Shown in pieces: positions 33,500-49,080 of a stretch of 64,000 bases of DNA. The translations under genes and the position numbers were made by a program. Position 1 is the first letter of the stretch. The number at the start of each line of letters is the position of its first letter. Location of the stretch: NCBI RefSeq assembly GCF_017348835.2, contig NZ_CP071375.1; one strand, written 5' to 3'. The notes below the pieces were generated by a model. It saw nothing but the letters and a program-made list of their open reading frames with translations, did no database searches and was not told the DNA's origin. This stretch comes from Escherichia coli. GTDB lineage: Bacteria; Pseudomonadota; Gammaproteobacteria; Enterobacterales; Enterobacteriaceae.

Positions 33500-34306
33500 A
33501 TGAAATTTGTCTCTTTTAATATCAACGGCCTGCGCGCCAGACCCCACCAGCTTCAAGCCATCGTCGAAAAGCACCAGCCGGATGTGATTGGCCTGCAGGA
33601 GACAAAAGTTCATGACGATATGTTTCCGCTCGAAGAGGTGGCGAAGCTTGGCTACAACGTGTTTTATCACGGGCAGAAAGGCCATTATGGCGTGGCGCTG
33701 CTGACCAAAGAGACGCCGATTGCCGTGCGTCGCGGCTTTCCCGGTGACGACGAAGAGGCGCAACGGCGGATTATTATGGCGGAAATCCCCTCGCCGCTGG
33801 GCAATGTCACCGTGATCAACGGTTACTTCCCGCAGGGTGAAAGCCGCGACCATCCGATAAAATTCCCGGCAAAGGCGCAGTTTTATCAGAATCTGCAAAA
33901 CTATCTGGAAACCGAACTCAAACGTGATAATCCGGTACTGATTATGGGCGATATGAATATCAGCCCTACAGATCTGGATATCGGCATTGGCGAAGAAAAC
34001 CGTAAACGCTGGCTGCGTACCGGTAAATGCTCTTTCCTGCCGGAAGAGCGCGAATGGATGGACAGGCTGATGAGCTGGGGGTTGGTCGATACCTTCCGCC
34101 ATGCGAATCCGCAAACAGCAGATCGTTTCTCATGGTTTGATTACCGCTCAAAAGGTTTTGACGATAACCGTGGTCTGCGCATCGACCTGCTGCTCGCCAG
34201 CCAACCGCTGGCAGAATGTTGCGTAGAAACCGGCATCGACTATGAAATCCGCAGCATGGAAAAACCGTCCGATCACGCCCCCGTCTGGGCGACCTTCCGC
34301 CGCTAA
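33500..34306 (+). CDS. xthA: Exodeoxyribonuclease III (AP endonuclease)
   Basis: Track ORF starts at ATG 33488; the ATG at 33500 gives the 268 aa protein [14 protein letters not shown]... recognised as XthA. Confidence 0.95.
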
Positions 34307-34472
34307 TTTAGCAGCTCTCCTGGCTCAAACTGGGTCAGGAGAATTAACCTTGAGAAAAATCAACAAACTGTCAGTAATGATTTGTTGCCTGCCGCCCTTT
34401 GTTATACCGTCACTGCGTTTTTAGTTGTCTGACCACTTCTCTATTATCAAGTTTGATATAGGAAACTCCACG

Positions 34473-35183
34473 ATGAACGCTGAGCGTAAATTTCTTTTTG
34501 CCTGTCTTATTTTTGCGCTGGTCATTTACGCTATCCACGCTTTCGGTTTATTCGATCTGCTCACCGATTTACCCCACTTACAGACACTCATTCGCCAGAG
34601 CGGATTGTTCGGTTATAGCCTCTATATTCTGTTATTCATCATTGCCACCCTCTTTCTGTTACCAGGAAGCATATTGGTGATCGCGGGAGGAATAGTTTTT
34701 GGCCCGTTCTTAGGGACACTACTCTCATTAATTGCCGCCACGCTGGCCTCCTCGTGCTCATTCCTGCTGGCGCGCTGGATGGGACGTGATTTACTGCTGA
34801 AATACGTTGGCCATAGCCATACCTTCCAGGCCATTGAAAAAGGCATTGCGCGTAACGGCATCGATTTTCTTATTCTGACCCGCTTAATTCCGCTGTTTCC
34901 GTACAATATTCAAAATTACGCTTACGGATTAACCGCTATTGCTTTCTGGCCCTATACCCTTATTTCGGCATTAACCACCCTGCCCGGAATCGTAATTTAT
35001 ACCGTGATGGCAAGCGATCTCGCCAATGAAGGCATTACGCTGCGCTTTATTTTACAACTCTGTCTGGCGGGCCTGGCGCTGTTTATTCTCGTCCAGCTCG
35101 CCAAACTCTACGCCCGACACAAACATGTGGATCTGTCTGCTTCGCGCCGCAACCCACTTACTCACCCAAAAAATGAAGGATAG
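34473..35183 (+). CDS. ydjX: TVP38/TMEM64 (DedA-like) family inner-membrane protein
   Basis: Track ORF of 252 aa; the ATG at 34473 gives the 236 aa protein MNAERKFLFACLIF... recognised as YdjX. Confidence 0.85.
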   Translation: MNAERKFLFACLIFALVIYAIHAFGLFDLLTDLPHLQTLIRQSGLFGYSLYILLFIIATLFLLPGSILVIAGGIVFGPFLGTLLSLIAATLASSCSFLLARWMGRDLLLKYVGHSHTFQAIEKGIARNGIDFLILTRLIPLFPYNIQNYAYGLTAIAFWPYTLISALTTLPGIVIYTVMASDLANEGITLRFILQLCLAGLALFILVQLAKLYARHKHVDLSASRRNPLTHPKNEG

Positions 35184-35187
35184 AACG

Positions 35188-35865
35188 ATGTTGCAACATT
35201 ATTCAGTGTCATGGAAAAAAGGACTGACTGCACTCTGCTTACTGGCTGTTGCTGGGCTTAGCGGCTGCGATCAAAAAGAGAATGCGGCGGCAAAAGTGGA
35301 ATACGACGGACTTTCGAACAGCCAACCGCTGCGCGTCGATGCCAATAACCATACGGTAACCATGCTGGTGCAAATTAATGGTCGTTTCCTCACCGACGAC
35401 ACTCGTCACGGTATTGTGTTTAAAGATGGCTCCAACGGACATAAATCGCTGTTTATGGGTTATGCGACCCCGAAAGCATTTTATGAAGCCCTGAAAGAGG
35501 CAGGTGGTACGCCGGGCGAAAACATGACGATGGATAATAAAGAAACGACTCATGTCACAGGCAGCAAACTGGATATTTCGGTCAACTGGCAAGGGGCGGC
35601 AAAAGCGTATTCCTTCGATGAAGTGATTGTTGACAGTAATGGCAAGAAACTGGACATGCGCTTTGGCGGTAATTTAACGGCAGCAGAAGAGAAGAAAACG
35701 GGTTGCCTGGTGTGTCTGGATAGCTGCCCGGTCGGCATCGTCAGCAATGCAACATACACTTATGGTGCGGTTGAAAAACGAGGTGAAGTTAAATTCAAAG
35801 GCAATGCCTCGGTTCTCCCGGCGGATAACACGCTGGCAACGGTTACCTTTAAAATCACCGAATAA
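35188..35865 (+). CDS. ydjY: Predicted lipoprotein YdjY
   Basis: Track ORF of 279 aa; the ATG at 35188 gives the 225 aa protein MLQHYSVSWKKGLTALCLLAVAGLSGC..., with lipobox LSGC (Cys at 35266..35268) and a C-terminal CxxCxxxC motif (CLVCLDSC). Confidence 0.85.
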   Translation: MLQHYSVSWKKGLTALCLLAVAGLSGCDQKENAAAKVEYDGLSNSQPLRVDANNHTVTMLVQINGRFLTDDTRHGIVFKDGSNGHKSLFMGYATPKAFYEALKEAGGTPGENMTMDNKETTHVTGSKLDISVNWQGAAKAYSFDEVIVDSNGKKLDMRFGGNLTAAEEKKTGCLVCLDSCPVGIVSNATYTYGAVEKRGEVKFKGNASVLPADNTLATVTFKITE

Positions 35866-35879
35866 AGCCAGGATAAAGG

Positions 35880-36587
35880 ATGATGAAGATGCAATCGCGA
35901 AAAATCTGGTACTACCGTATAACCCTCATCATCCTGTTGTTCGCTATGCTGCTGGCATGGGCGCTGCTTCCCGGCGTCCATGAGTTTATCAATCGCAGCG
36001 TTGCGGCGTTTGCCGCCGTGGACCAACAGGGTATAGAACGCTTTATTCAGTCTTACGGCGCACTGGCGGCAGTTGTCTCGTTCTTGTTGATGATTTTACA
36101 GGCCATTGCTGCACCGCTACCTGCGTTTTTGATCACCTTTGCCAATGCGTCGCTGTTTGGCGCGCTCTGGGGCGGCTTGCTGTCATGGACCAGTTCGATG
36201 GCCGGCGCGGCGCTGTGCTTTTTTATCGCCAGAGTGATGGGCCGCGAAGTGGTGGAAAAATTAACCGGCAAAACCGTACTTGACAGTATGGACGGCTTTT
36301 TCACTCGCTACGGCAAACACACTATCCTGGTCTGTCGGTTATTGCCTTTTGTCCCTTTCGATCCAATCAGCTATGCTGCCGGTTTGACTTCAATCCGTTT
36401 TCGCTCGTTTTTTATCGCCACCGGGCTTGGTCAGTTACCGGCGACTATTGTTTATTCCTGGGCGGGCAGCATGTTAACAGGCGGTACCTTCTGGTTTGTC
36501 ACCGGACTGTTTATTCTGTTTGCCCTGACCGTGGTGATTTTTATGGCGAAGAAAATATGGCTTGAGCGCCAGAAGAGGAATGCCTGA
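35880..36587 (+). CDS. ydjZ: TVP38/TMEM64 (DedA-like) family inner-membrane protein
   Basis: 235 aa polytopic ORF recognised as YdjZ; paralogous in architecture to ydjX. Confidence 0.85.
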   Translation: MMKMQSRKIWYYRITLIILLFAMLLAWALLPGVHEFINRSVAAFAAVDQQGIERFIQSYGALAAVVSFLLMILQAIAAPLPAFLITFANASLFGALWGGLLSWTSSMAGAALCFFIARVMGREVVEKLTGKTVLDSMDGFFTRYGKHTILVCRLLPFVPFDPISYAAGLTSIRFRSFFIATGLGQLPATIVYSWAGSMLTGGTFWFVTGLFILFALTVVIFMAKKIWLERQKRNA

Positions 36588-37135
36588 TGGGTTTACCGCC
36601 GCTTAGCAAAATTCCTTTCATTTTACGTCCGCAGGCGTGGCTGCATCGTCGCCATTACGGCGAGGTGCTAAGCCCCATTCGCTGGTGGGGGCGGATCCCA
36701 TTTATCTTTTATCTGGTGTCGATGTTTGTTGGCTGGCTGGAGCGCAAACGCTCACCGCTCGATCCGGTAGTACGATCGCTTGTCAGCGCGCGCATTGCGC
36801 AAATGTGCCTGTGTGAGTTTTGCGTGGATATCACCAGTATGAAAGTCGCCGAGCGTACCGGCAGCAGCGATAAACTGCTGGCAGTGGCTGACTGGCGGCA
36901 AAGCCCGCTCTTCAGCGATGAAGAACGGCTGGCGCTGGAGTACGCCGAAGCCGCAAGCGTCACACCGCCTACGGTCGATGATGCCCTGCGCACCCAACTG
37001 GCTGCGCATTTTGACGCTCAGGCGCTCACCGAACTGACGGCATTGATCGGCCTGCAAAACCTGTCGGCTCGTTTTAATTCTGCCATGGACATTCCCGCTC
37101 AGGGGTTGTGCCGTATTCCGGAAAAACGTTCTTAA
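36587..37135 (+). CDS. ynjA: Carboxymuconolactone decarboxylase / AhpD-like family protein
   Basis: 182 aa ORF recognised as YnjA; start ATG overlaps the ydjZ TGA stop (TGATG). Confidence 0.85.
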   Translation: MGLPPLSKIPFILRPQAWLHRRHYGEVLSPIRWWGRIPFIFYLVSMFVGWLERKRSPLDPVVRSLVSARIAQMCLCEFCVDITSMKVAERTGSSDKLLAVADWRQSPLFSDEERLALEYAEAASVTPPTVDDALRTQLAAHFDAQALTELTALIGLQNLSARFNSAMDIPAQGLCRIPEKRS

Positions 37136-37141
37136 GGAGAG

Positions 37142-38311
37142 ATGATGCGCCATTGTGGGTGGTTGCTGGGATTGTTATCGCTGTTTTCTCTGGCAACACA
37201 TGCCAGTGACTGGCAAGAAATTAAAAATGAGGCCAAAGGGCAAACCGTCTGGTTTAACGCCTGGGGTGGCGATACCGCAATTAACCGCTATCTCGACTGG
37301 GTTAGCGGCGAGATGAAAACCCATTACGCTATAAACCTGAAGATTGTTCGTCTGGCGGATGCCGCAGACGCGGTGAAGCGCATTCAGACCGAAGCCGCAG
37401 CCGGACGTAAAACGGGCGGCTCGGTGGATCTGCTCTGGGTGAACGGCGAAAACTTCCGCACCTTAAAAGAGGCCAATTTATTACAAACGGGCTGGGCGGA
37501 GACTCTGCCCAACTGGCGCTATGTCGACACACAGCTGCCGGTGCGGGAAGATTTTTCAGTGCCTACAGAAGGGGCTGAATCGCCCTGGGGGGGCGCACAA
37601 CTGACATTTATCGCCCGCCGCGATGTTACGCCACAGCCACCACAAACGCCTCAAGCCTTACTGGAGTTTGCTAAAGCCAATCCCGGCACGGTTACCTATC
37701 CGCGCCCACCGGACTTTACCGGCACGGCGTTTCTTGAACAGTTGCTGATTATGCTGACGCCAGATCCCGCCGCATTAAAAGAAGCGCCGGACGATGCGAC
37801 TTTCGCCCGTGTCACTGCTCCCTTGTGGCAATATCTTGATGCGCTGCATCCGTATTTGTGGCGCGAAGGAAAGGATTTCCCGCCTTCGCCCGCGCGGATG
37901 GATGCTCTGCTGAAAGCCGGAACATTGCGCCTGTCGCTGACCTTTAACCCCGCGCATGCGCAGCAAAAAATCGCCAGCGGCGATTTGCCTGCAAGCAGTT
38001 ACAGTTTTGGCTTTCGCGAGGGGATGATTGGCAACGTGCATTTCGTCACCATTCCTGCCAACGCGAATGCCAGTGCTGCGGCGAAGGTAGTTGCCAATTT
38101 CTTGCTCTCACCCGATGCGCAATTGCGTAAAGCAGATCCCGCTGTCTGGGGCGATCCTTCTGTTCTCGATCCGCAAAAACTGCCTGATGGGCAGCGCGAA
38201 ACATTGCAATCAAGAATGCCGCAAGATCTGCCGCCGGTACTGGCTGAACCGCACGCAGGTTGGGTAAATGCGCTGGAACAAGAATGGCTACACCGTTACG
38301 GTACGCATTAA
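37142..38311 (+). CDS. ynjB: ABC transporter periplasmic substrate-binding protein
   Basis: 389 aa ORF with signal peptide (MMRHCGWLLGLLSLFSLATHA); recognised as YnjB. Confidence 0.85.
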   Translation: MMRHCGWLLGLLSLFSLATHASDWQEIKNEAKGQTVWFNAWGGDTAINRYLDWVSGEMKTHYAINLKIVRLADAADAVKRIQTEAAAGRKTGGSVDLLWVNGENFRTLKEANLLQTGWAETLPNWRYVDTQLPVREDFSVPTEGAESPWGGAQLTFIARRDVTPQPPQTPQALLEFAKANPGTVTYPRPPDFTGTAFLEQLLIMLTPDPAALKEAPDDATFARVTAPLWQYLDALHPYLWREGKDFPPSPARMDALLKAGTLRLSLTFNPAHAQQKIASGDLPASSYSFGFREGMIGNVHFVTIPANANASAAAKVVANFLLSPDAQLRKADPAVWGDPSVLDPQKLPDGQRETLQSRMPQDLPPVLAEPHAGWVNALEQEWLHRYGTH

Positions 38312-39819
38312 TCTTTTTGCTGTGGGCGATGGTGGCGGTGATTTATGCACCGCTGATCCCGGCAGCTCTCACGCTGATATCGCCTGCTTTGTCGTTGACA
38401 CACTGGCAGGCGTTATTTGCCGATCCACAGTTACCGCAGGCATTACTGGCAACGCTGGTGTCGACAACCATCGCGGCGGTCGGGGCGTTGTTGATTGCCC
38501 TGCTGGTGATTGTGGCGCTGTGGCCTGGGCCGAAATGGCAGCGTATGTGCACCCGTCTGCCGTGGCTGCTCGCCATTCCCCATATAGCTTTTGCCACCAG
38601 CGCCCTTCTGCTCTTTGCTGACGGAGGGCTGCTTTATGACTATTTCCCGTATTTCACTCCGCCAATGGACCGATTTGGCATCGGTCTGGGCCTCACCCTT
38701 GCAGTGAAAGAAAGCGCATTTCTGCTGTGGATCTTAGCAGCAGTATTGAGCGAAAAACGGCTGTTGCAGCAGGTCATTGTGCTGGATTCGCTGGGCTACA
38801 GCCGCTGGCAATGCCTGAACTGGCTGCTGTTGCCCTCCGTCGCGCCTGCGCTGGCAATGGCGATGCTGGCGATTGTGGCCTGGTCACTGTCGGTCGTGGA
38901 TGTGGCGATTATTCTTGGGCCAGGTAATCCACCGACGCTGGCAGTAATTAGCTGGCAGTGGTTAACCCAGGGCGACATTGACCAACAAACAAAAGGCGCG
39001 CTTGCCAGCCTGCTGTTGATGCTGTTACTCGCCGCCTACGTTTTGCTGGGCTATCTGCTATGGCGTAGCTGGCGGCATACTATTCCCCGCGTAGATGGCG
39101 TTCGTAAGCCTGCCACGCCTTTATTGCCAGGCATTACGCTGGCGATTTTTTTACCCTTGACCGGTGTGCTGTGTGTGGTTCTGCTGGCGATCCTCGCGGA
39201 TCAGTCGACGATCAATAGTGAAGCGCTCATCAACAGCCTGACAATGGGACTTACTGCGACGTTTATCGCTTTGCTCCTGTTACTGCTGTGGCTGGAATGG
39301 GGGGCAAAGCGTCGCCAGTTGTGGCTATGGTTGCCCATTTTATTACCCGCTCTGCCACTGGTTGCGGGCCAGTACACGCTGGCGCTATGGCTGAACCTGG
39401 ATAGGAGCTGGACGGCGGTGGTCTGGGGGCATCTGCTGTGGGTAATGCCGTGGATGCTGTTTATCCTGCAACCCGCCTGGCAGCGCATTGATACACGGTT
39501 AATTTTGATTGCGCAAACACTGGGCTGGTCGCGGGCCAAAATCTTCTTTTACGTGAAATGTCCGCTTATGCTACGCCCTACGCTGATTGCCTTCGCGGTG
39601 GGATTTTCAGTCAGTATTGCGCAGTATATGCCGACGCTGTGGCTGGGTGCGGGGCGTTTTCCGACGCTCACCACTGAGGCGGTGGCATTAAGCAGCGGCG
39701 GCAGCAACGGTATTCTCGCCGCCCAGGCTTTATGGCAACTGCTCTTACCGCTTACTATTTTTGCCCTGACCGCGTTAGTCGCAAAATGGGTAGGTTATGT
39801 CAGACAAGGACTCCGCTAA
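38284..39819 (+). CDS. ynjC: ABC transporter permease (two-domain)
   Basis: Track ORF starts at TTG 38260; the ATG at 38284 gives the 511 aa polytopic protein MATPLRYALIFLLWAM... recognised as YnjC; overlaps the ynjB 3' end by 28 nt. Confidence 0.8.
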   Translation: MATPLRYALIFLLWAMVAVIYAPLIPAALTLISPALSLTHWQALFADPQLPQALLATLVSTTIAAVGALLIALLVIVALWPGPKWQRMCTRLPWLLAIPHIAFATSALLLFADGGLLYDYFPYFTPPMDRFGIGLGLTLAVKESAFLLWILAAVLSEKRLLQQVIVLDSLGYSRWQCLNWLLLPSVAPALAMAMLAIVAWSLSVVDVAIILGPGNPPTLAVISWQWLTQGDIDQQTKGALASLLLMLLLAAYVLLGYLLWRSWRHTIPRVDGVRKPATPLLPGITLAIFLPLTGVLCVVLLAILADQSTINSEALINSLTMGLTATFIALLLLLLWLEWGAKRRQLWLWLPILLPALPLVAGQYTLALWLNLDRSWTAVVWGHLLWVMPWMLFILQPAWQRIDTRLILIAQTLGWSRAKIFFYVKCPLMLRPTLIAFAVGFSVSIAQYMPTLWLGAGRFPTLTTEAVALSSGGSNGILAAQALWQLLLPLTIFALTALVAKWVGYVRQGLR

Positions 39820-40472
39820 TGCTCGGCGTGAAAAATGTTTCGCTACGTTTACCAGAAAGCCGCTTGCTGACAAACGTTAACTTTACGGTGGATAAAGGTG
39901 ACATTGTCACGTTAATGGGTCCGTCTGGCTGTGGAAAATCCACTCTGTTTTCATGGATGATTGGTGCACTGGCTGGACAGTTTTCTTGTACAGGTGAGCT
40001 ATGGCTCAATGAGCAACGGATTGACATGCTACCCACCGCAGAGCGTCAGATTGGCATTCTTTTCCAGAATGCACTGTTATTTGACCAGTTCAGCGTCGGG
40101 CAAAATTTACTGCTGGCGCTACCGGCGACACTTAAAGGGAATGCCCGACGTAATGCCGTGAATGATGCACTTGAGCGTTCAGGCCTTGACGGAGCTTTCC
40201 ATCAGGATCCTGCCACTTTGTCTGGCGGTCAGCGAGCGCGCGTTGCTCTGCTTCGCGCCCTTCTCGCTCAGCCAAAAGCGTTGCTACTGGATGAGCCATT
40301 CAGCCGTCTTGATGTGGCTCTGCGCGATAATTTTCGCCAGTGGGTGTTCAGCGAAGTTCGCGCCCTGGCGATCCCCGTCGTTCAGGTAACGCATGATCTC
40401 CAGGATGTTCCTGCTGATAGTTCTGTTCTGGATATGGCGCAGTGGTCAGAAAATTACAACAAACTGCGATAA
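39819..40472 (+). CDS. ynjD: ABC transporter ATP-binding protein
   Basis: 217 aa protein MLGVKNVSLRL... with Walker A (GPSGCGKST) and signature (LSGGQ) motifs; its ATG overlaps the ynjC TAA stop by 1 nt. Confidence 0.85.
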   Translation: MLGVKNVSLRLPESRLLTNVNFTVDKGDIVTLMGPSGCGKSTLFSWMIGALAGQFSCTGELWLNEQRIDMLPTAERQIGILFQNALLFDQFSVGQNLLLALPATLKGNARRNAVNDALERSGLDGAFHQDPATLSGGQRARVALLRALLAQPKALLLDEPFSRLDVALRDNFRQWVFSEVRALAIPVVQVTHDLQDVPADSSVLDMAQWSENYNKLR

Positions 40473-40538
40473 CGCAAAGTTTTTCTCAATGCGTCAGTTC
40501 AGAATGGCGCACTCAAAACTACAATGTCGGGATTTTCG

Positions 40539-41846
40539 ATGAAACGTGTTTCTCAAATGACCGCGCTGGCAATGGCTTTAGGGCTGGCTTGCGCTTCTTC
40601 GTGGGCCGCTGAACTGGCGAAGCCTCTTACACTTGACCAGCTTCAACAACAAAATGGCAAAGCGATAGATACTCGCCCCAGCGCGTTTTATAACGGCTGG
40701 CCACAAACCTTAAATGGCCCTTCTGGTCATGAACCTGCCGCCTTAAACCTCTCTGCTAGCTGGCTTGACAAAATGAGCACCGAACAGCTAAACGCGTGGA
40801 TCAAGCAACATAACCTGAAAGCCGATGCCCCGGTGGCGCTGTACGGTAATGGCAAAGATGTCGACGCCGTCAAAACGCGACTGCAAAAAGCAGGTTTTAC
40901 GCATATCTCCATTCTGAGTGACGCGCTAAGCGAACCTTCCCGTCTGCAAAAACTGCCGCATTTTGAGCAGCTGGTTTATCCGCAATGGCTGCACGACCTG
41001 CAACAAGGTAAAGAGGTTACGGCGAAACCTGCCGGTGACTGGAAAGTCATTGAAGCGGCCTGGGGCGCTCCTAAGCTTTACCTTATCAGCCATATTCCCG
41101 GCGCTGACTACATCGATACCAACGAAGTGGAAAGTGAACCGCTGTGGAACAAAGTTTCTGATGAACAACTAAAAGCGATGCTGGCAAAACACGGCATTCG
41201 CCATGACACCACGGTCATTCTGTATGGGCGTGACGTATACGCTGCAGCGCGTGTGGCGCAGATTATGCTTTATGCCGGCGTGAAAGATGTCCGCCTGCTG
41301 GATGGCGGCTGGCAAACCTGGTCCGACGCGGGACTGCCCGTTGAGCGCGGAACGCCACCGAAAGTGAAAGCGGAACCGGATTTCGGCGTGAAGATCCCGG
41401 CACAACCGCAACTGATGCTCGATATGGAACAGGCCCGTGGACTGCTGCATCGCCAGGATGCATCGCTGGTGAGCATTCGTTCGTGGCCAGAATTTATCGG
41501 TACGACCAGCGGTTACAGCTATATTAAACCAAAAGGTGAAATAGCCGGAGCACGTTGGGGACACGCTGGTAGCGACTCGACGCATATGGAAGATTTCCAT
41601 AACCCGGATGGCACCATGCGTAGCGCCGATGATATTACCGCTATGTGGAAAGCATGGAATATCAAACCAGATCAGCAAGTTTCATTCTACTGCGGCACCG
41701 GCTGGCGCGCGTCCGAAACCTTTATGTACGCACGAGCAATGGGCTGGAATAACGTCTCCGTTTACGACGGCGGCTGGTACGAATGGAGCAGCGATCCAAA
41801 AAATCCGGTAGCAACCGGTGAACGCGGCCCGGACAGCAGCAAATAA
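40539..41846 (+). CDS. ynjE: Periplasmic multi-rhodanese-domain sulfurtransferase
   Basis: 435 aa protein from the ATG at 40539 (MKRVSQMTALAMALGLACASSWA...), with signal peptide and a C-terminal rhodanese active-site Cys (CGTGWRA). Confidence 0.9.
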   Translation: MKRVSQMTALAMALGLACASSWAAELAKPLTLDQLQQQNGKAIDTRPSAFYNGWPQTLNGPSGHEPAALNLSASWLDKMSTEQLNAWIKQHNLKADAPVALYGNGKDVDAVKTRLQKAGFTHISILSDALSEPSRLQKLPHFEQLVYPQWLHDLQQGKEVTAKPAGDWKVIEAAWGAPKLYLISHIPGADYIDTNEVESEPLWNKVSDEQLKAMLAKHGIRHDTTVILYGRDVYAAARVAQIMLYAGVKDVRLLDGGWQTWSDAGLPVERGTPPKVKAEPDFGVKIPAQPQLMLDMEQARGLLHRQDASLVSIRSWPEFIGTTSGYSYIKPKGEIAGARWGHAGSDSTHMEDFHNPDGTMRSADDITAMWKAWNIKPDQQVSFYCGTGWRASETFMYARAMGWNNVSVYDGGWYEWSSDPKNPVATGERGPDSSK

Positions 41847-41854
41847 CATTGCAA

Positions 41855-42481
41855 TTACTGACGCTGGAGCGACTTCAGCGTCAGATACCCACTCCACACC
41901 CGCGTAAAGGTCGTCATCCAGCACAACGCACCAAATACCCACGCAAACAACGGAAAACAGGTCGGAAAGAGGCAACTCAGAACAAACAGCAAAATCGTCT
42001 CGCTGCCTTCGGTTAACCCGCCCAGATAATAAAACGATTTATGCGCATAACCGGGATTATCAATCTGATGTTTCGCCGCCAGCGCAGCAAAAGCGAGAAA
42101 ACTGCTACCCGTGCCGATAAACGCAAACAGCAGCCAGCCGCCTGCCAGGGCGTTTTGCTGCGGTGCGGCGAGGATAAACCCAAAAGGCACCAGCGCGTAA
42201 AAAAGAAAATCGAGAAAAATATCAAGAAAGCCGCCCGCGTCGGTAAGCCCTCTGCGCCGCGCCAGCGCACCGTCCAGACCATCAAGCAGCCTGTTCAACA
42301 AAATGACGACTAGCGCCGCCAGATACCAGCCCAGCGCCAGAAACGGCAGAGCCAGCACGCCGATGGCAAATCCCACTAATGTTAAACCATCTGGCGTAAT
42401 GCCCGGTTTATCAAGAACCCGCACGCACTGATGCAACAACGGTTTAATCCGGGGATGAAGATGGCGGTCTAGCACAGGCAC
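41855..42481 (-). CDS. ynjF: CDP-alcohol phosphatidyltransferase-family membrane protein
   Basis: 208 aa ORF with the motif D-G-x2-A-R (LDGLDGALARRRG); recognised as YnjF. My reading of the exact start codon from the sequence text was inconsistent by 2 nt, so track coordinates are kept. Confidence 0.8.
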   Translation of the reverse strand: MPVLDRHLHPRIKPLLHQCVRVLDKPGITPDGLTLVGFAIGVLALPFLALGWYLAALVVILLNRLLDGLDGALARRRGLTDAGGFLDIFLDFLFYALVPFGFILAAPQQNALAGGWLLFAFIGTGSSFLAFAALAAKHQIDNPGYAHKSFYYLGGLTEGSETILLFVLSCLFPTCFPLFAWVFGALCWMTTFTRVWSGYLTLKSLQRQ

Positions 42482-42561
42482 TCCTTAAATATAAAGCCTT
42501 TCTGATTGAGCAACAGTGCGGATATTATGGCATTTTTCGCTTATCTGCCCGTGTGTAATTT

Positions 42562-42969
42562 ATGAAAATGATTGAAGTTGTTGCCGCCATCATTGAACGT
42601 GATGGCAAAATTTTACTCGCGCAACGCCCCGCCCAGCGCGATCAGGCGGGATTATGGGAGTTTGCCGGTGGTAAAGTCGAGCTGGATGAAAGCCAGCAGC
42701 AGGCGCTGGTGCGTGAGTTAAACGAAGAATTGGGCATCGAAGCAACTGTGGGTGAGTATGTTGCCAGCCATCAGCGAGAAGTTTCGGGGCGGATTATCCA
42801 TCTTCATGCCTGGCACGTACCCGACTTCCACGGGACGTTACAGGCACATGAACATCAGGCGCTGGTCTGGTGCTCACCTGAAGAGGCGCTGCAATATCCG
42901 CTGGCCCCTGCTGACATTCCACTATTAGAGGCGTTTATGGCTTTACGCGCCGCCAGACCAGCGGATTAG
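42562..42969 (+). CDS. nudG: Nudix hydrolase (CTP / 5-methyl-dCTP pyrophosphohydrolase)
   Basis: 135 aa ORF with the Nudix box (GGKVELDESQQQALVRELNEELGI); recognised as NudG. Confidence 0.9.
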   Translation: MKMIEVVAAIIERDGKILLAQRPAQRDQAGLWEFAGGKVELDESQQQALVRELNEELGIEATVGEYVASHQREVSGRIIHLHAWHVPDFHGTLQAHEHQALVWCSPEEALQYPLAPADIPLLEAFMALRAARPAD

Positions 42970-48036: not shown

Positions 48037-49080
48037 TTAACGAATCTCAACCATGGCACGACCGCCGCGCGCTGGCACCAGTTCGCCAATCGCCGTCAGT
48101 TCAATGCCAAACTCGGCGGCTGTAGCTTTAACCTCATTTTCTGCTTCCGGCATGACCGCCAGCAGCAAACCGCCAGAAGTTTGCGGATCGCACAGCAAAT
48201 CGCGCACTTCACGCGGCATTTCACCCATCAGATGACCGTAGCTGGCAAAGTTACGTTCGGTGCCGCCAGGCACTGCGCCCAACTTAATGTACTCTTCAAC
48301 CCCCGGCAATTTTGGGATCGCGTCATAGTCAACGCGCGCCTGCACACCTGCGCCCTGACACATTTCGCTCAAATGGCCCAGCAGACCAAAACCAGTAACG
48401 TCGGTCATCGCTTTTACGCCTTCGATGTTGGCAAAGGACGCGCCTGCGATGTTCATCCGGCACATCACTTCCGTCGCCAGTCCCTGATGTTCTGGTTTCA
48501 GCAGTGATTTTTTCTCAGCCGTGGTAAGAACGCCGATCCCCAGCGGTTTCGTCAGGAACAGTTTGCATCCGGCTTGTGCGGTACTGTTTTTCTTCACCCG
48601 CTCGGTCGGTACGATCCCCGTTACCGCCAGACCAAAAATCGGCTCCGGCGCATCGATGGAGTGACCGCCAGCCAGCGCAATACCCGCCTGACGGCATGCA
48701 TAGCGTCCACCTTCGGTTACTTCGCGGGCAATTTCCGGGGAAAGTTTGTTAATCGGCCAGCCGAGGATCGCAATCGCCATAATCGGTTTGCCCCCCATCG
48801 CGAAGATATCGCTGATGGCGTTAGTCGCCGCAATGCGGCCAAAATCGAAAGGATTATCAACGATCGGCATAAAGAAGTCGGTGGTACTGATAACGCTGGT
48901 GCCATTGCCCAGATCGTACACCGCCGCATCGTCGCGGGTTTCATTACCCACAAGCAAATTCGGATCAACAAACTTCGCCTGCTCACTGTGCAGGATGGTT
49001 TCCAACACTTTTGGGGAAATTTTACAGCCGCAACCAGCTCCGTGGCTGTATTGGGTCAAACGAATCGAGTTCTCGCTCAT
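48037..49080 (-). CDS. selD: Selenide, water dikinase (selenophosphate synthetase)
   Basis: 347 aa protein from [23 protein letters not shown]...; recognised as SelD with active-site Cys-17 motif. Its stop lies 4 nt upstream of the topB start (operon). Confidence 0.95.

Follow-up and report, generated by a model that had tools for sequence, protein, structure and literature searches.

The ydjXYZ-ynjABCD cluster of Escherichia coli, together with ynjE and ynjF, is one conserved membrane system that is found across phyla. It was analyzed here in a window of 64,000 nucleotides (the whole stretch of DNA under study, from contig NZ_CP071375.1). We tentatively propose, at a probability of about 0.4, that these genes constitute an anaerobically induced envelope system of three coupled modules, which would act as a chalcogen relay similar to that of the Mer proteins, with trace selenium as the most likely substrate, ahead of sulfane sulfur. 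Support for this model comes from anaerobic co-regulation, conserved neighbourhoods, gene fusions, conserved cysteines and selenium-related neighbours.

Gene content and anaerobic control of the operon

The window is chromosomal DNA of E. coli, and the interval 34473-41846 is an operon of the core genome, ydjX-ydjY-ydjZ-ynjA-ynjB-ynjC-ynjD, followed by ynjE. An 8.5 kb query was found in 5424 of 5426 complete genomes, and strain PE164 shares 100% identity with it. The genes and control elements are as follows, gene coordinates being those of the RefSeq annotation carried over to the window (L001 position + 30999):

34350..34363, plus strand: FNR-type site TTGAGaaaaATCAA, 110-123 nt 5' of the ydjX ATG
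34445..34458, unstranded: perfect 6-2-6 palindrome TATCAA-GT-TTGATA, read from the sequence
34473..35183, plus strand: ydjX, X-type DedA/VTT membrane protein (COG0398), without conserved cysteine
35188..35865, plus strand: ydjY, lipoprotein exported via Sec, bearing an invariant CxxCxxxC triad
35880..36587, plus strand: ydjZ, Z-type DedA/VTT membrane protein (COG0398) that carries Cys113 and Cys152
36587..37135, plus strand: ynjA, AhpD/CMD family protein with conserved C76-x-x-C79 and a short hydrophobic N-terminal extension
37145..38311, plus strand: ynjB, periplasmic substrate-binding protein of an ABC importer
38284..39819, plus strand: ynjC, permease of 511 aa, two fused halves with about 12 hydrophobic segments
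39819..40472, plus strand: ynjD, ABC ATPase
40498..40525, plus strand: sigma-70-like promoter match between ynjD and ynjE, TTCAGA-16-TACAAT, 9/12 positions, a consensus match only
40539..41846, plus strand: ynjE, secreted rhodanese of three domains whose single catalytic cysteine, Cys385, is in the motif CGTGWR
41855..42475, minus strand: ynjF, CDP-alcohol phosphatidyltransferase convergent with ynjE, beyond the range of the initial annotation

From ydjX through ynjE there are eight intact open reading frames, all on the plus strand. The initial annotation had described the first seven as co-directional with tight or overlapping junctions, which both the RefSeq annotation and a reading of the sequence bear out exactly: gaps of 4 nt (ydjX/ydjY), 14 nt (ydjY/ydjZ) and 9 nt (ynjA/ynjB), 1-nt overlaps at ydjZ/ynjA (common TGATG) and ynjC/ynjD (TAATG), and a 28-nt overlap at ynjB/ynjC. 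The ynjD/ynjE junction is a 66-nt gap that holds the promoter-like site. The protein classes assigned there were also right: two DedA/TVP38-like membrane proteins (YdjX and YdjZ, both VTT/DedA), a lipoprotein with CxxCxxxC (YdjY, lipobox LSGC and C173-x2-C176-x3-C180, invariant in 20 homologues), an AhpD-like protein with a conserved CxxC (YnjA), a full ABC importer (YnjB binding protein, YnjC fused permease, YnjD ATPase) and, 3' of ynjD, a secreted triple rhodanese, YnjE, which matches the three-rhodanese structures 3IPO/2WLR (E = 8.5e-287).

The operon ydjXYZ-ynjABCD is activated by FNR, with an FNR ChIP site at -60.5 (PMC3688515). The site TTGAGaaaaATCAA has one mismatch to TTGATNNNNATCAA; as a motif alone it falls short of significance, the window having 5 matches where 2.85 are expected, and its position agrees with that of the ChIP site. 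The palindrome at 34445-34458, which lies past the inferred transcription start and ahead of the Shine-Dalgarno sequence of ydjX, is a candidate operator. One E. coli iModulon consists of ydjXYZ-ynjABCD, ynjE, yedEF and yjiLM; its activity is higher anaerobically and lower in fnr and arcA mutants, and molybdenum/selenium usage was proposed for the ydjXYZ-ynjABCD, ynjE and yedEF set (Sastry et al. 2021).

Neighbourhood conservation across phyla

Gene neighbourhoods were surveyed in 80 loci anchored on YdjY (73 of them non-enterobacterial) and 80 anchored on YnjB (46 non-enterobacterial). YdjY scores 146 bits on NF040466 (cut-off 50) and belongs to a rare family (394 representatives in 1.84e9 proteins). 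Of the 73 non-enterobacterial loci, which come from at least four phyla, 70 have a VTT protein no more than 10 kb from YdjY, and 50 have a Z-type protein adjoining YdjY. In Bacillota the same gene set is repeated in one direction, as in L057 (YdjY, small membrane protein, YdjX-like, YdjZ-like, HdrD-like, YnjF-like, YnjB/C/C/D) and similarly in L050, L027, L044 and L065; the two halves of YnjC are separate genes in Firmicutes. The test of neighbourhood conservation that had been set beforehand was thus positive across phyla and beyond Proteobacteria, which backs a functional linkage of the genes.

The gene set of the initial annotation is linked as claimed, with ynjF left out although it is the tightest partner of ynjBCD and ynjA. 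A ynjF homologue stands directly 3' of ynjD in 15 of the 46 non-enterobacterial YnjB loci, distant proteobacteria among them, follows YnjD in 12 of the 23 YnjB-anchored loci with enough downstream DNA, and in 5-6 Firmicute loci is a neighbour of the ABC genes or of YdjY. The association of ynjE with ydjXYZ also held, given YnjE-like rhodaneses beside YdjY in Catonella, Campylobacter and Peptostreptococcaceae loci, rhodanese-YdjY fusions (P0277, P0272, P0343 and two AFDB entries) and co-expression in E. coli. In addition, a YdjZ-type VTT domain is fused to YdjY in P0311. YnjA, by comparison, was not found as a co-conserved member outside enterobacteria (0/73 YdjY-anchored and 1/46 YnjB-anchored loci), where other disulfide reductases take its place. 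Among enterobacteria its gene shifts position yet remains in the cluster, either between ydjZ and ynjB or, in Citrobacter/Salmonella-like and Kluyvera loci, 5' of ynjF and overlapping it.

These comparative data make a chance mix of unrelated genes unlikely. Such a mix would bring together YnjBCD as a thiamine-like nutrient importer, a pair of housekeeping DedA proteins, and YnjE with a role in molybdenum cofactor sulfuration, and it finds some backing in the label of putative thiamine transport protein that some sources give to YnjB, in an earlier proposal of YnjE as an alternative sulfur carrier in molybdopterin synthesis, and in the promoter-like site and 66-nt gap that set ynjE apart from ynjD. 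Neighbourhoods and fusions are nevertheless conserved across phyla, the genes are co-expressed, the score on the ThiQ model is 130 bits (cut-off 245), Moco-dependent phenotypes are normal in a ynjE deletion, and YnjE is periplasmic whereas Moco synthesis is cytoplasmic; the absence of a common function is therefore very improbable.

Cysteine proteins and the putative chalcogen relay

The first module of the proposed relay would be formed by the periplasmic cysteine proteins YdjY (triad Cys173/176/180) and YnjE (Cys385), the second by the membrane pair YdjZ and YdjX with a cytoplasmic redox partner (YnjA in E. coli), and the third by an import/lipid arm in which the ABC importer YnjBCD is coupled to YnjF. 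A thiophilic chalcogen might be captured in the periplasm on YnjE as perselenide or persulfide, handed over to the cysteine triad of YdjY, moved across the membrane through YdjZ/YdjX and released reductively by YnjA in the cytoplasm, from where selenium could pass to SelD during anaerobic selenoprotein synthesis. We infer both this direction of transfer and the element carried.

Among the periplasmic proteins, YdjY has five invariant residues in 20 homologues (R73, H74, C173, C176 and C180), and its AF2 model (pLDDT 90) gave no informative fold match. Since the E. coli periplasm is oxidizing, free cysteine triads may be disulfide-bonded, which counts against the relay. Mature YnjE has one cysteine only, and the CGTGWR motif is kept in YnjE-like proteins. 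The enzyme acts poorly on thiosulfate and 3-mercaptopyruvate, and its poor use of thiosulfate was counted in favour of the relay. Its nearest solved relatives besides YnjE itself are 6KTV/6H98 (E ~1e-88 over the whole length), which were deposited simply as 'Sulfurtransferase' and which we take to be EanB, the anaerobic ergothioneine sulfurtransferase that forms a C-S bond on a small molecule; unlike EanB, YnjE is secreted, and genes of the hercynine pathway are absent nearby.

In the membrane, YdjX carries the RefSeq name TVP38/TMEM64, and PF09335 was found on an orthologue with 73% identity. In 75 distinct Z-type sequences, 67 positions are at least 95% conserved, and the YdjZ cysteines are present in 75/75 (C113) and 69/75 (C152). 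C152 immediately precedes R153-L-L-P156, which is a re-entrant-loop motif. X-type relatives in other bacteria are fused to reductases, either HdrD-like or MerA/GR-like flavoproteins, and these reductase-fused VTT proteins do not have the YdjZ cysteines, which counts against a continuous Cys-to-Cys path. For YnjA, PDB relatives include 2IJC, AhpD and Bmp8, the CxxC is invariant across 5 orthologues, and the NCBIfam 'YciW-related (seleno)protein' model gives 99 bits, below its cut-off of 310; E. coli YnjA probably fills the role of a cytoplasmic disulfide reductase.

Much of this evidence could also be read as a supply of reductant in the manner of DsbD/CcdA, in which cytoplasmic reductases (YnjA, elsewhere HdrD-like or MerA-like) would keep the cysteines of YnjE and YdjY reduced via the VTT proteins while the two perform extracytoplasmic sulfur transfer. 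The reductase-VTT fusions, the two conserved membrane cysteines of YdjZ, the cysteine proteins on the periplasmic side and the sulfurtransferase relatives of YnjE all agree with it. We nevertheless consider it unlikely, as the reductase-fused VTT type has no conserved cysteine, YnjBCD/YnjF and SelD are left unexplained, and we know of no DedA protein that transfers electrons.

The relay model has the same three-compartment layout as the mer relay (MerP, MerT/MerC, MerA), namely an extracytoplasmic cysteine protein (YdjY, YnjE), a membrane cysteine protein (YdjZ) and a cytoplasmic partner of the disulfide-reductase type, which is YnjA in E. coli and a VTT-fused MerA/GR-like or HdrD-like domain in relatives. 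The cluster differs from mer in that its proteins are unrelated in sequence to MerP and MerT, MerR is absent, FNR is the regulator, and an ABC importer plus a phosphatidyltransferase are added. The likeness of the VTT-fused reductases to MerA amounts to 346-368 bits, which is short of the MerA cut-off (454), and these reductases do not have its C-terminal cysteine pair. A true metalloid or metal function, in which As(III), Sb(III) or Hg(II) would be captured on the three-cysteine site of YdjY and then transferred and transformed, is decidedly unlikely on account of this shortfall from MerA, and also because ars/mer genes are absent from the E. coli cluster and the operon is under FNR and co-regulated with yedEF rather than under metal sensors. 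Nonetheless, the likeness to MerA speaks for it, three-cysteine sites are classic As(III) ligands (ArsR, ArsD), a YdjY homologue is present in Desulfuribacillus stibiiarsenatis, and three recurrent neighbour families are named 'arsenosugar biosynthesis' by NCBIfam.

Selenium is suggested by several neighbours. SelD was found near YdjY in five Desulfobacterota loci, as was YedF in five, and a SelD fusion lies near YnjBCD-YnjF-VTT/reductase genes in 6 of 46 loci with two different gene orders; in E. coli, selD is 5.6 kb beyond ynjF. Only a minority of loci and few lineages have SelD or YedF as neighbours, which also weighs against a selenium reading, and the minimal YdjY + YdjZ pair of Gemella and Finegoldia has no SelD or YedF neighbour. 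For YedE (putative selenium transporter) and YedF (selenium-metabolism sulfurtransferase-like protein), as for the cluster with which they are co-regulated, a candidate role in selenium trafficking comes from comparative evidence alone; they differ in belonging to unrelated protein families, and yedEF lies outside the window. No high-affinity selenium transporter is known, and a DedA protein has reportedly been tied to selenite resistance (Ledgham 2005). The initial annotation had suggested uptake or detoxification of a sulfur or selenium compound: the theme fits the SelD, YedF, rhodanese and disulfide-reductase neighbours and the co-regulation with yedEF, whereas detoxification received no specific support.

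The importer, YnjF and a possible lipid product

The role of YnjBCD and YnjF is not explained by a simple relay and counts against that model; they may produce, from an imported polar head group, a phospholipid that serves the relay, or provide a second entry route. YnjB is recognized by PRK11622 (562 bits, cut-off 203). It has no sequence relative in the PDB, and the best Foldseek matches of its AF2 model (pLDDT 86) are cluster-D binding proteins with 11-17% identity. YnjC matches the PhnU2, ModB and CysT permease models weakly, and the best NCBIfam matches of YnjD are the PhnT2, sulfate and ThiQ ATPases, all below cut-offs. The importer thus shares binding-protein fold, fused or paired permease and ATPase similarity with ThiBPQ, PhnSTUV and Fbp-type cluster-D importers, and is set apart from them by its low identity to solved binding proteins (TM at most 0.64, query-normalized) and by scores below the cut-offs of all the named equivalog models. 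Nothing was found in favour of the suggested sulfur or selenium cargo, and ligand prediction from the YnjB structure model yielded no ligand call. Trp, Asp, Glu and Asn abound among the invariant residues of YnjB, which hints at a site unlike that for an oxyanion and slightly disfavours the relay.

YnjF has an intact catalytic motif DGLDGALARRRGLTDAGGFLDIFLD, an orthologue carries PF01066, and its nearest models are phosphatidyl- and archaetidyl-inositol-phosphate synthases. When choline ABC import is linked to Pcs, an exogenous head group is joined to CDP-DAG to give phosphatidylcholine. YnjBCD/YnjF similarly pairs a binding-protein-dependent importer with a genetically coupled CDP-alcohol phosphatidyltransferase, although YnjF matches Pcs models weakly (~20 bits against cut-offs of 400-440) and is nearer to the inositol-phosphate type. 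A rival reading makes the lipid the purpose of the system: YnjBCD would take up a polar alcohol (perhaps an onium alcohol or a sugar containing organo-arsenic, -selenium or -sulfur), YnjF would couple it to CDP-diacylglycerol, YdjX/YdjZ would scramble the resulting unusual phospholipid or glycolipid to the outer leaflet, and YnjE, YdjY and YnjA would modify or maintain the head group, which in anaerobes would be made de novo by ArsS, TIGR04282/kinase and TIGR04283.

Such head-group salvage is possible, though we regard it as doubtful. YnjF is the tightest partner of YnjBCD, and COG0398 DedA proteins resemble eukaryotic phospholipid scramblases, a likeness that also counts against the relay. 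YdjX and YdjZ share the VTT/DedA fold (PF09335) with COG0586 DedA flippases (UptA, YghB/YqjA) and VTT scramblases (TMEM41B, VMP1); they score 27-37 bits on the UptA model (cut-off 250), do not have the charged residues, acidic and basic, that are associated with UndP flipping, and YdjZ-type proteins have an extra invariant cysteine. Families termed 'arsenosugar' outnumber SelD as neighbours (TIGR04282 in 13 loci, ArsS in 9), the ArsS/TIGR04282/TIGR04283 set being interleaved with YdjY, VTT, HdrD-like and YnjE-like genes in 9-13 anaerobe loci. In the Campylobacter operon L069, YdjY and two VTT genes are mixed with an ArsS radical SAM protein, a TIGR04282/kinase fusion and a TIGR04283 GT2, all three above NCBIfam cut-offs. 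YnjF-like and MprF-like flippase-domain genes occur inside Bacillota YdjY/VTT operons, and a fatty-acid hydroxylase is fused to YdjY in P0362; the arsenosugar families and the flippase domains suggest a product of sugar or lipid type, a point against the relay. On the other hand, ArsS, TIGR04282 and TIGR04283 are all absent from the E. coli window, an unusual YnjF-dependent lipid has never been reported (the literature found on ynjF is almost nil), and salvage by itself leaves the reductase fusions, invariant cysteines and SelD/YedF neighbours unexplained. It is partly compatible with the relay model rather than exclusive of it.

The operon was already catalogued and a molybdenum/selenium role already proposed, so that both the locus and the sulfur/selenium idea were known before. 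What the census of YdjY and YnjB loci adds is that these genes are a real cross-phylum system, and that this system takes in ynjF.

Organization and regulation of the nine-gene locus

The window is chromosomal DNA of E. coli. An 8.5 kb query around the ydjX-ynjF locus was found at 100% identity in strain PE164 and, among 5426 complete E. coli genomes, is present in 5424; the locus therefore belongs to the core genome. Gene positions were taken from the RefSeq annotation of the identical record, and all nine genes are intact open reading frames.

Genes of the ydjX-ynjF locus (RefSeq annotation)
34473-35183, + strand, ydjX
35188-35865, + strand, ydjY
35880-36587, + strand, ydjZ
36587-37135, + strand, ynjA
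37145-38311, + strand, ynjB
38284-39819, + strand, ynjC
39819-40472, + strand, ynjD
40539-41846, + strand, ynjE
41855-42475, - strand, ynjF

Annotation, reading frames and junctions all bear out the gene cluster described in the initial annotation, including the TGATG shared by ydjZ and ynjA, the 28-nt overlap of ynjB and ynjC and the 1-nt overlap of ynjC and ynjD. The remaining gaps measure 4 nt (ydjX/ydjY), 14 nt (ydjY/ydjZ) and 9 nt (ynjA/ynjB), and ynjD and ynjE are spaced by 66 nt with a promoter-like match inside the gap. The eight genes first assigned to the cluster were correct, but the range stopped short of ynjF, a genuine member, since ynjF directly follows YnjD in distant YnjB loci. 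The convergent ynjE and ynjF leave 8 nt between their stop codons (41846-41855), so that their transcripts must overlap, and the pair is among the predicted excludons (PMC12288877). A terminator scan of 34200-42700 gave 27 sites versus 10.8 expected from shuffles, many of them weak and nearly all within coding sequences of T-rich membrane-protein genes; this simple scan detected no convincing internal terminator and no site at any gene junction.

Published work lists ydjXYZ-ynjABCD among the operons activated by FNR, the site being at -60.5 (PMC3688515). The sequence TTGAGaaaaATCAA at 34350-34363 lies at a distance that fits this published site; the motif by itself has no statistical significance in the window and rests on the published ChIP data. 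In addition, ynjABCD is mildly induced by BaeR overproduction. Independent-component analysis of E. coli transcriptomes placed ydjXYZ-ynjABCD, ynjE, yedEF and yjiLM in one uncharacterised iModulon, whose activity rises anaerobically and falls in fnr and arcA mutants and for which the study proposed a function in the usage of molybdenum and selenium (PMC7888660). At 34445-34458, downstream of the inferred transcription start and ahead of the ribosome-binding site of ydjX, stands a perfect 6-2-6 palindrome, TATCAA-GT-TTGATA. It resembles FNR half-sites placed in inverted order and could be an operator for the regulator of this iModulon.

With the operon listing and the iModulon proposal published, both the locus and the idea of sulfur or selenium chemistry are already in print. 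The literature searches covered all gene names and turned up no functional study of ydjX, ydjY, ydjZ, ynjA-D or ynjF. What the present analysis adds is comparative evidence, through which ynjF joins the system and particular residues and partners are defined.

Protein families and conserved residues

Both YdjX and YdjZ belong to the COG0398 (TVP38/TMEM64) subfamily of the DedA/VTT superfamily: the PF09335 VTT domain is recorded on 73%-identical orthologues, the RefSeq name is TVP38/TMEM64, and the conserved G/P and RLxP motifs are visible in VTT alignments. YdjZ has served as the structural example of COG0398, a group of DedA proteins of unestablished function in which fusion to a pyridine-nucleotide disulfide oxidoreductase is common (PMC10127716). 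An UptA-type undecaprenyl-phosphate flippase was rejected, the two proteins scoring 27.6 and 37.4 bits against the NF052604 cut-off of 250, and according to the literature COG0398 proteins lack the acidic and basic re-entrant-tip residues of such flippases. Across phyla, 75 distinct YdjZ-type sequences share 67 positions with conservation of 95% or more; Cys113 is found in all 75 and Cys152, immediately N-terminal of the R153-L-L-P156 re-entrant-loop motif, in 69. No conserved cysteine was seen in alignments of YdjX-type proteins, the reductase-fused ones included. A literature search on DedA proteins and selenite added nothing beyond Ledgham 2005, in which a DedA protein is linked to selenite resistance.

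YdjY scored 146 bits against the YdjY-domain family NF040466/PF27149 (cut-off 50), and PF27149 is recorded on all its homologues. It carries a lipobox and three invariant cysteines, C173-x2-C176-x3-C180. The UniProt label of 4Fe-4S ferredoxin was not sustained: three conserved cysteines stand in place of the four-cysteine motif CxxCxxCxxxCP, the lipoprotein signal is of the Sec type and has no twin arginine as Tat export would demand, and ferredoxin-like matches are weak (E about 0.3 in PDB; Fer4_3 at E = 0.16 for a homologue). Selenocysteine at the triad was likewise rejected, as the triad falls within one stop-free reading frame in nearly all 73 non-enterobacterial loci; this was read off the table of reading frames, the exceptions being L028 (a locus cut by the contig end) and L084 (where the match extends to residue 213). 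The family is rare: in 1.84 billion proteins it has 394 representatives at E ≤ 0.001. Fusions exist: rhodanese with YdjY in the homologues P0277, P0272 and P0343 and in two AFDB entries (the rhodanese domain is Pfam-confirmed in P0277 and P0343 and assigned by sequence motif in P0272), and a YdjZ-type VTT protein with YdjY in a single case, P0311.

YnjA is a member of the AhpD/carboxymuconolactone decarboxylase family (PDB relatives at E = 1.8e-9 to 8e-6; PF02627 on an orthologue) with an invariant C76-x-x-C79. Its score on the YciW-related (seleno)protein model NF053654, 99 bits, falls short of the cut-off of 310. YnjE is a rhodanese matching the solved three-rhodanese structures 3IPO/2WLR (E = 8.5e-287), and its active-site Cys385, in CGTGWR, is the sole cysteine outside the signal peptide. 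After YnjE itself, the nearest solved relatives are the sulfurtransferases 6KTV and 6H98, which we take to be EanB. YnjE is reported to work poorly or not at all with thiosulfate or 3-mercaptopyruvate and to show no apparent thiosulfate:GSH activity, and its physiological substrate was called unclear (PMC10215317), and Moco-dependent phenotypes are normal in a ynjE deletion (PMC3831636).

YnjBCD constitutes a complete type I, binding-protein-dependent ABC importer: YnjB scores 562 bits against PRK11622 (cut-off 203), YnjC has about 12 hydrophobic segments and YnjD matches many ABC models. No named equivalog, thiamine included, exceeded its NCBIfam cut-off for any of the three proteins. The thiamine transporter ThiBPQ was rejected, with ThiQ models at 130.7 and 128.6 bits versus cut-offs of 245 and 298 and no ThiB or ThiP match in NCBIfam; TbpA (2QRY) matches YnjB in fold at 15% identity. 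Prediction of the YnjB ligand from a structure model, as had been suggested, gave no call: the AF2 model (pLDDT 86) matches the generic cluster-D binding proteins FbpA, PhnS/STM0429, PotD, TbpA and MctA, and with identities of 11-17% and TM scores of at most 0.64 normalised on the query, a ligand cannot be named. A sequence search of the PDB with YnjB found no relative. PADLOC returned generic ABC-ATPase matches to YnjD only, and an anti-phage defence system was ruled out.

YnjF is a CDP-alcohol phosphatidyltransferase with the motif D(x)2DG(x)2AR(x)7-12G(x)3D(x)3D intact at residue 65, about five hydrophobic segments and PF01066 on an orthologue; among solved structures, AF2299 and PIPS match weakly.

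Gene neighbourhoods across phyla

Three arrangements occur among enterobacterial relatives of YnjB. Citrobacter/Salmonella-like and Kluyvera loci have no ydjY, and their YnjA orthologue (58% identity) is encoded upstream of ynjF on the opposite strand and overlaps it; thus ynjA moves yet stays in the cluster, coupled to ynjF. GC content is about 48% over ydjX-ydjY (34200-36000) and 55-57% over ynjA-ynjC (36600-39600), and homologues of YdjY in Firmicutes and Campylobacterota share 50-58% identity with it. Together with the absence of the gene from the enterobacterial loci just named, this suggests that ydjY may be a late insertion in the Escherichia lineage.

In 46 non-enterobacterial metagenome loci whose YnjB is 46-64% identical to that of E. 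coli, YnjF directly follows YnjD in 15; 23 of the loci extend 4.5 kb or more downstream, and 12 of these show the arrangement. A VTT protein occurs in nine, and a flavoprotein resembling MerA or glutathione reductase in eight, fused to VTT in the three that were annotated (L129, L136 and L169). These VTT-fused reductases are not true MerA (346-368 bits versus the TIGR02053 cut-off of 454); their MerA-like domains keep the CxxxxC redox pair and have no cysteine at the C-terminus, where MerA has a pair. SelD was found in six of the 46 loci, in two gene orders; in L136, the only case examined in detail, it is fused to a TIGR03169 oxidoreductase. A separate branch of YnjB-like importers (47-50% identity; L153, L158, L160, L162, L165, L168 and L171) has no YnjF or VTT neighbours and shares instead an 842-aa protein, along with other neighbours that are conserved; the YnjB family is therefore functionally heterogeneous.

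Scanning for YdjY in a single genome of each species gave 120 loci. Eighty were retained, seven from Escherichia or Citrobacter and 73 from anaerobes or microaerophiles, namely Bacillota (Finegoldia, Peptostreptococcus, Gemella, Catonella, Clostridium, Thermincola and Bacillus benzoevorans), Campylobacterota (Sulfurospirillum and Campylobacter), Desulfobacterota, Syntrophia and one Spirochaetia MAG.

Proteins encoded within 10 kb of YdjY in the 73 non-Escherichia/Citrobacter loci
Any VTT protein: 70/73
YdjZ-type VTT protein: 50/73
YdjX-type or other VTT protein: 30/73
HdrD-like Fe-S/CCG protein: 26/73
Small membrane protein of 126-154 aa: 42/73
YnjB/C/D-like importer: 11/73
YnjF-like transferase: 5-6/73
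YnjE-like rhodanese: 5/73
YnjA: 0/73

Conservation of the neighbourhood, proposed initially as a check, thus extends across phyla, from the nearly constant VTT protein to several Bacillota loci that carry nearly the entire E. coli set in one direction, such as L057 (YdjY, small membrane protein, YdjX-like, YdjZ-like, HdrD-like, YnjF-like, YnjB, YnjC, YnjC, YnjD). The HdrD-like protein is often fused to a VTT domain, and rhodaneses of other kinds occur in YdjY loci besides the five with a YnjE-like protein. The small membrane protein, which has no family assignment, lies downstream of ydjY in anaerobes (L002 8649-9029, L005 8666-9130, L069 3311-3688 and 39 other loci) and has no counterpart in E. 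coli; in Firmicutes it is fused to the N-terminus of YdjZ-type proteins, which brings them to about 395 aa. The system is seen in fuller form at 2673-13300 of L069, from an uncultured Campylobacter, as a 12-gene co-directional operon: YdjY, small membrane protein, TIGR04282/kinase fusion, YdjZ-like, YdjX-like, TIGR04283 GT2, HdrD-like, ArsS, membrane protein, YnjE-like rhodanese, C-GCAxxG-C-C and sodium:solute symporter-like protein.

By NCBIfam, recurrent YdjY neighbours include TIGR04282 (13 loci), ArsS radical SAM (nine), an MprF-like flippase domain (six), and SelD, YedF and C-GCAxxG-C-C (five each). The frequent ArsS, TIGR04282 and TIGR04283 proteins, together with YnjF and the flippase-like neighbours, speak for the involvement of a sugar or lipid product, and a lipid head-group salvage pathway, possibly part of the same mechanism as a relay, is therefore kept as the main rival. 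A second hint that YdjY might act at or on a membrane lipid is P0362, a 478-aa homologue joining a fatty-acid hydroxylase (PF04116) membrane domain to a YdjY-like domain. The arsenosugar set ArsS, TIGR04282 and TIGR04283 had no match across the 64 kb window and was seen only in the related anaerobe loci; literature searches on arsenosugars and ArsS gave titles and abstracts of which none concerned these gene families. In L004 (Finegoldia), genes for an SBF/ACR3-like transporter and an ArsC-like low-molecular-weight phosphatase at 1-713, 7-8 kb upstream of YdjY, possibly reflect an arsenic link, or chance.

In E. coli, selD (48037-49080, - strand) lies 5.6 kb beyond ynjF, with nudG, ynjH, gdhA, ynjI and topB between. 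As SelD recurs beside distant YnjBCD-YnjF-VTT and YdjY loci, this closeness may be a linkage relic, or coincidence.

A possible chalcogen relay across the envelope

Taken together, the nine genes from ydjX to ynjF very probably form one functional system (probability roughly 0.85). Its modules are an extracytoplasmic cysteine pair of YdjY and a rhodanese, two membrane proteins, and an arm of importer and phosphatidyltransferase. Of the membrane proteins, the YdjZ type has conserved cysteines, and the YdjX type is linked to a disulfide reductase in the cytoplasm. This reductase is HdrD-like in anaerobes and a flavoprotein in aerobic proteobacteria; in enterobacteria YnjA, with its CxxC motif, probably takes its place. 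The MerP-MerT-MerA relay, which handles a thiophilic element, has a parallel layout. A Mer-like thiol relay, in which a chalcogen would cross the envelope from YnjE/YdjY through YdjZ/YdjX to YnjA, is a tentative model to which we give slightly less than even odds, and such a mechanism was not in print before. Selenium is the leading candidate for the substrate, because the genes are regulated anaerobically and co-expressed with yedEF and because SelD and YedF recur in the neighbourhood; sulfane sulfur is second. The direction of transfer, the element and the lipid are all points that we infer.

The most far-reaching form of the relay proposal is that the cluster represents the first described trans-envelope relay for a chalcogen, dedicated to acquiring trace selenium (or sulfane sulfur), with COG0398 DedA/TVP38 proteins as the membrane-crossing step; we consider it unlikely as a whole. 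YdjZ would then work through its conserved cysteines, perhaps aided by a carrier phospholipid that YnjF makes, and YdjX-type partners would dock cytoplasmic disulfide reductases.

According to reviews, no high-affinity selenium transporter is known and a SelD-dependent trait of unknown nature exists. The function of COG0398 DedA proteins, and possibly trace-selenium acquisition by bacteria, can now be tested directly in E. coli, the handles being the nine-gene set with ynjF, the predicted partners yedEF and selD, a predicted YnjF-dependent lipid, and the cysteines YdjZ C113/C152, YdjY C173/176/180, YnjA C76/C79 and YnjE C385. If lipid head-group salvage were the true function, E. coli would possess an unrecognised anaerobic phospholipid. 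If the chalcogen relay is true, it would be the missing high-affinity route of bacterial selenium uptake and would give a role to a DedA subfamily whose conservation reaches as far as eukaryotic TVP38/TMEM64.
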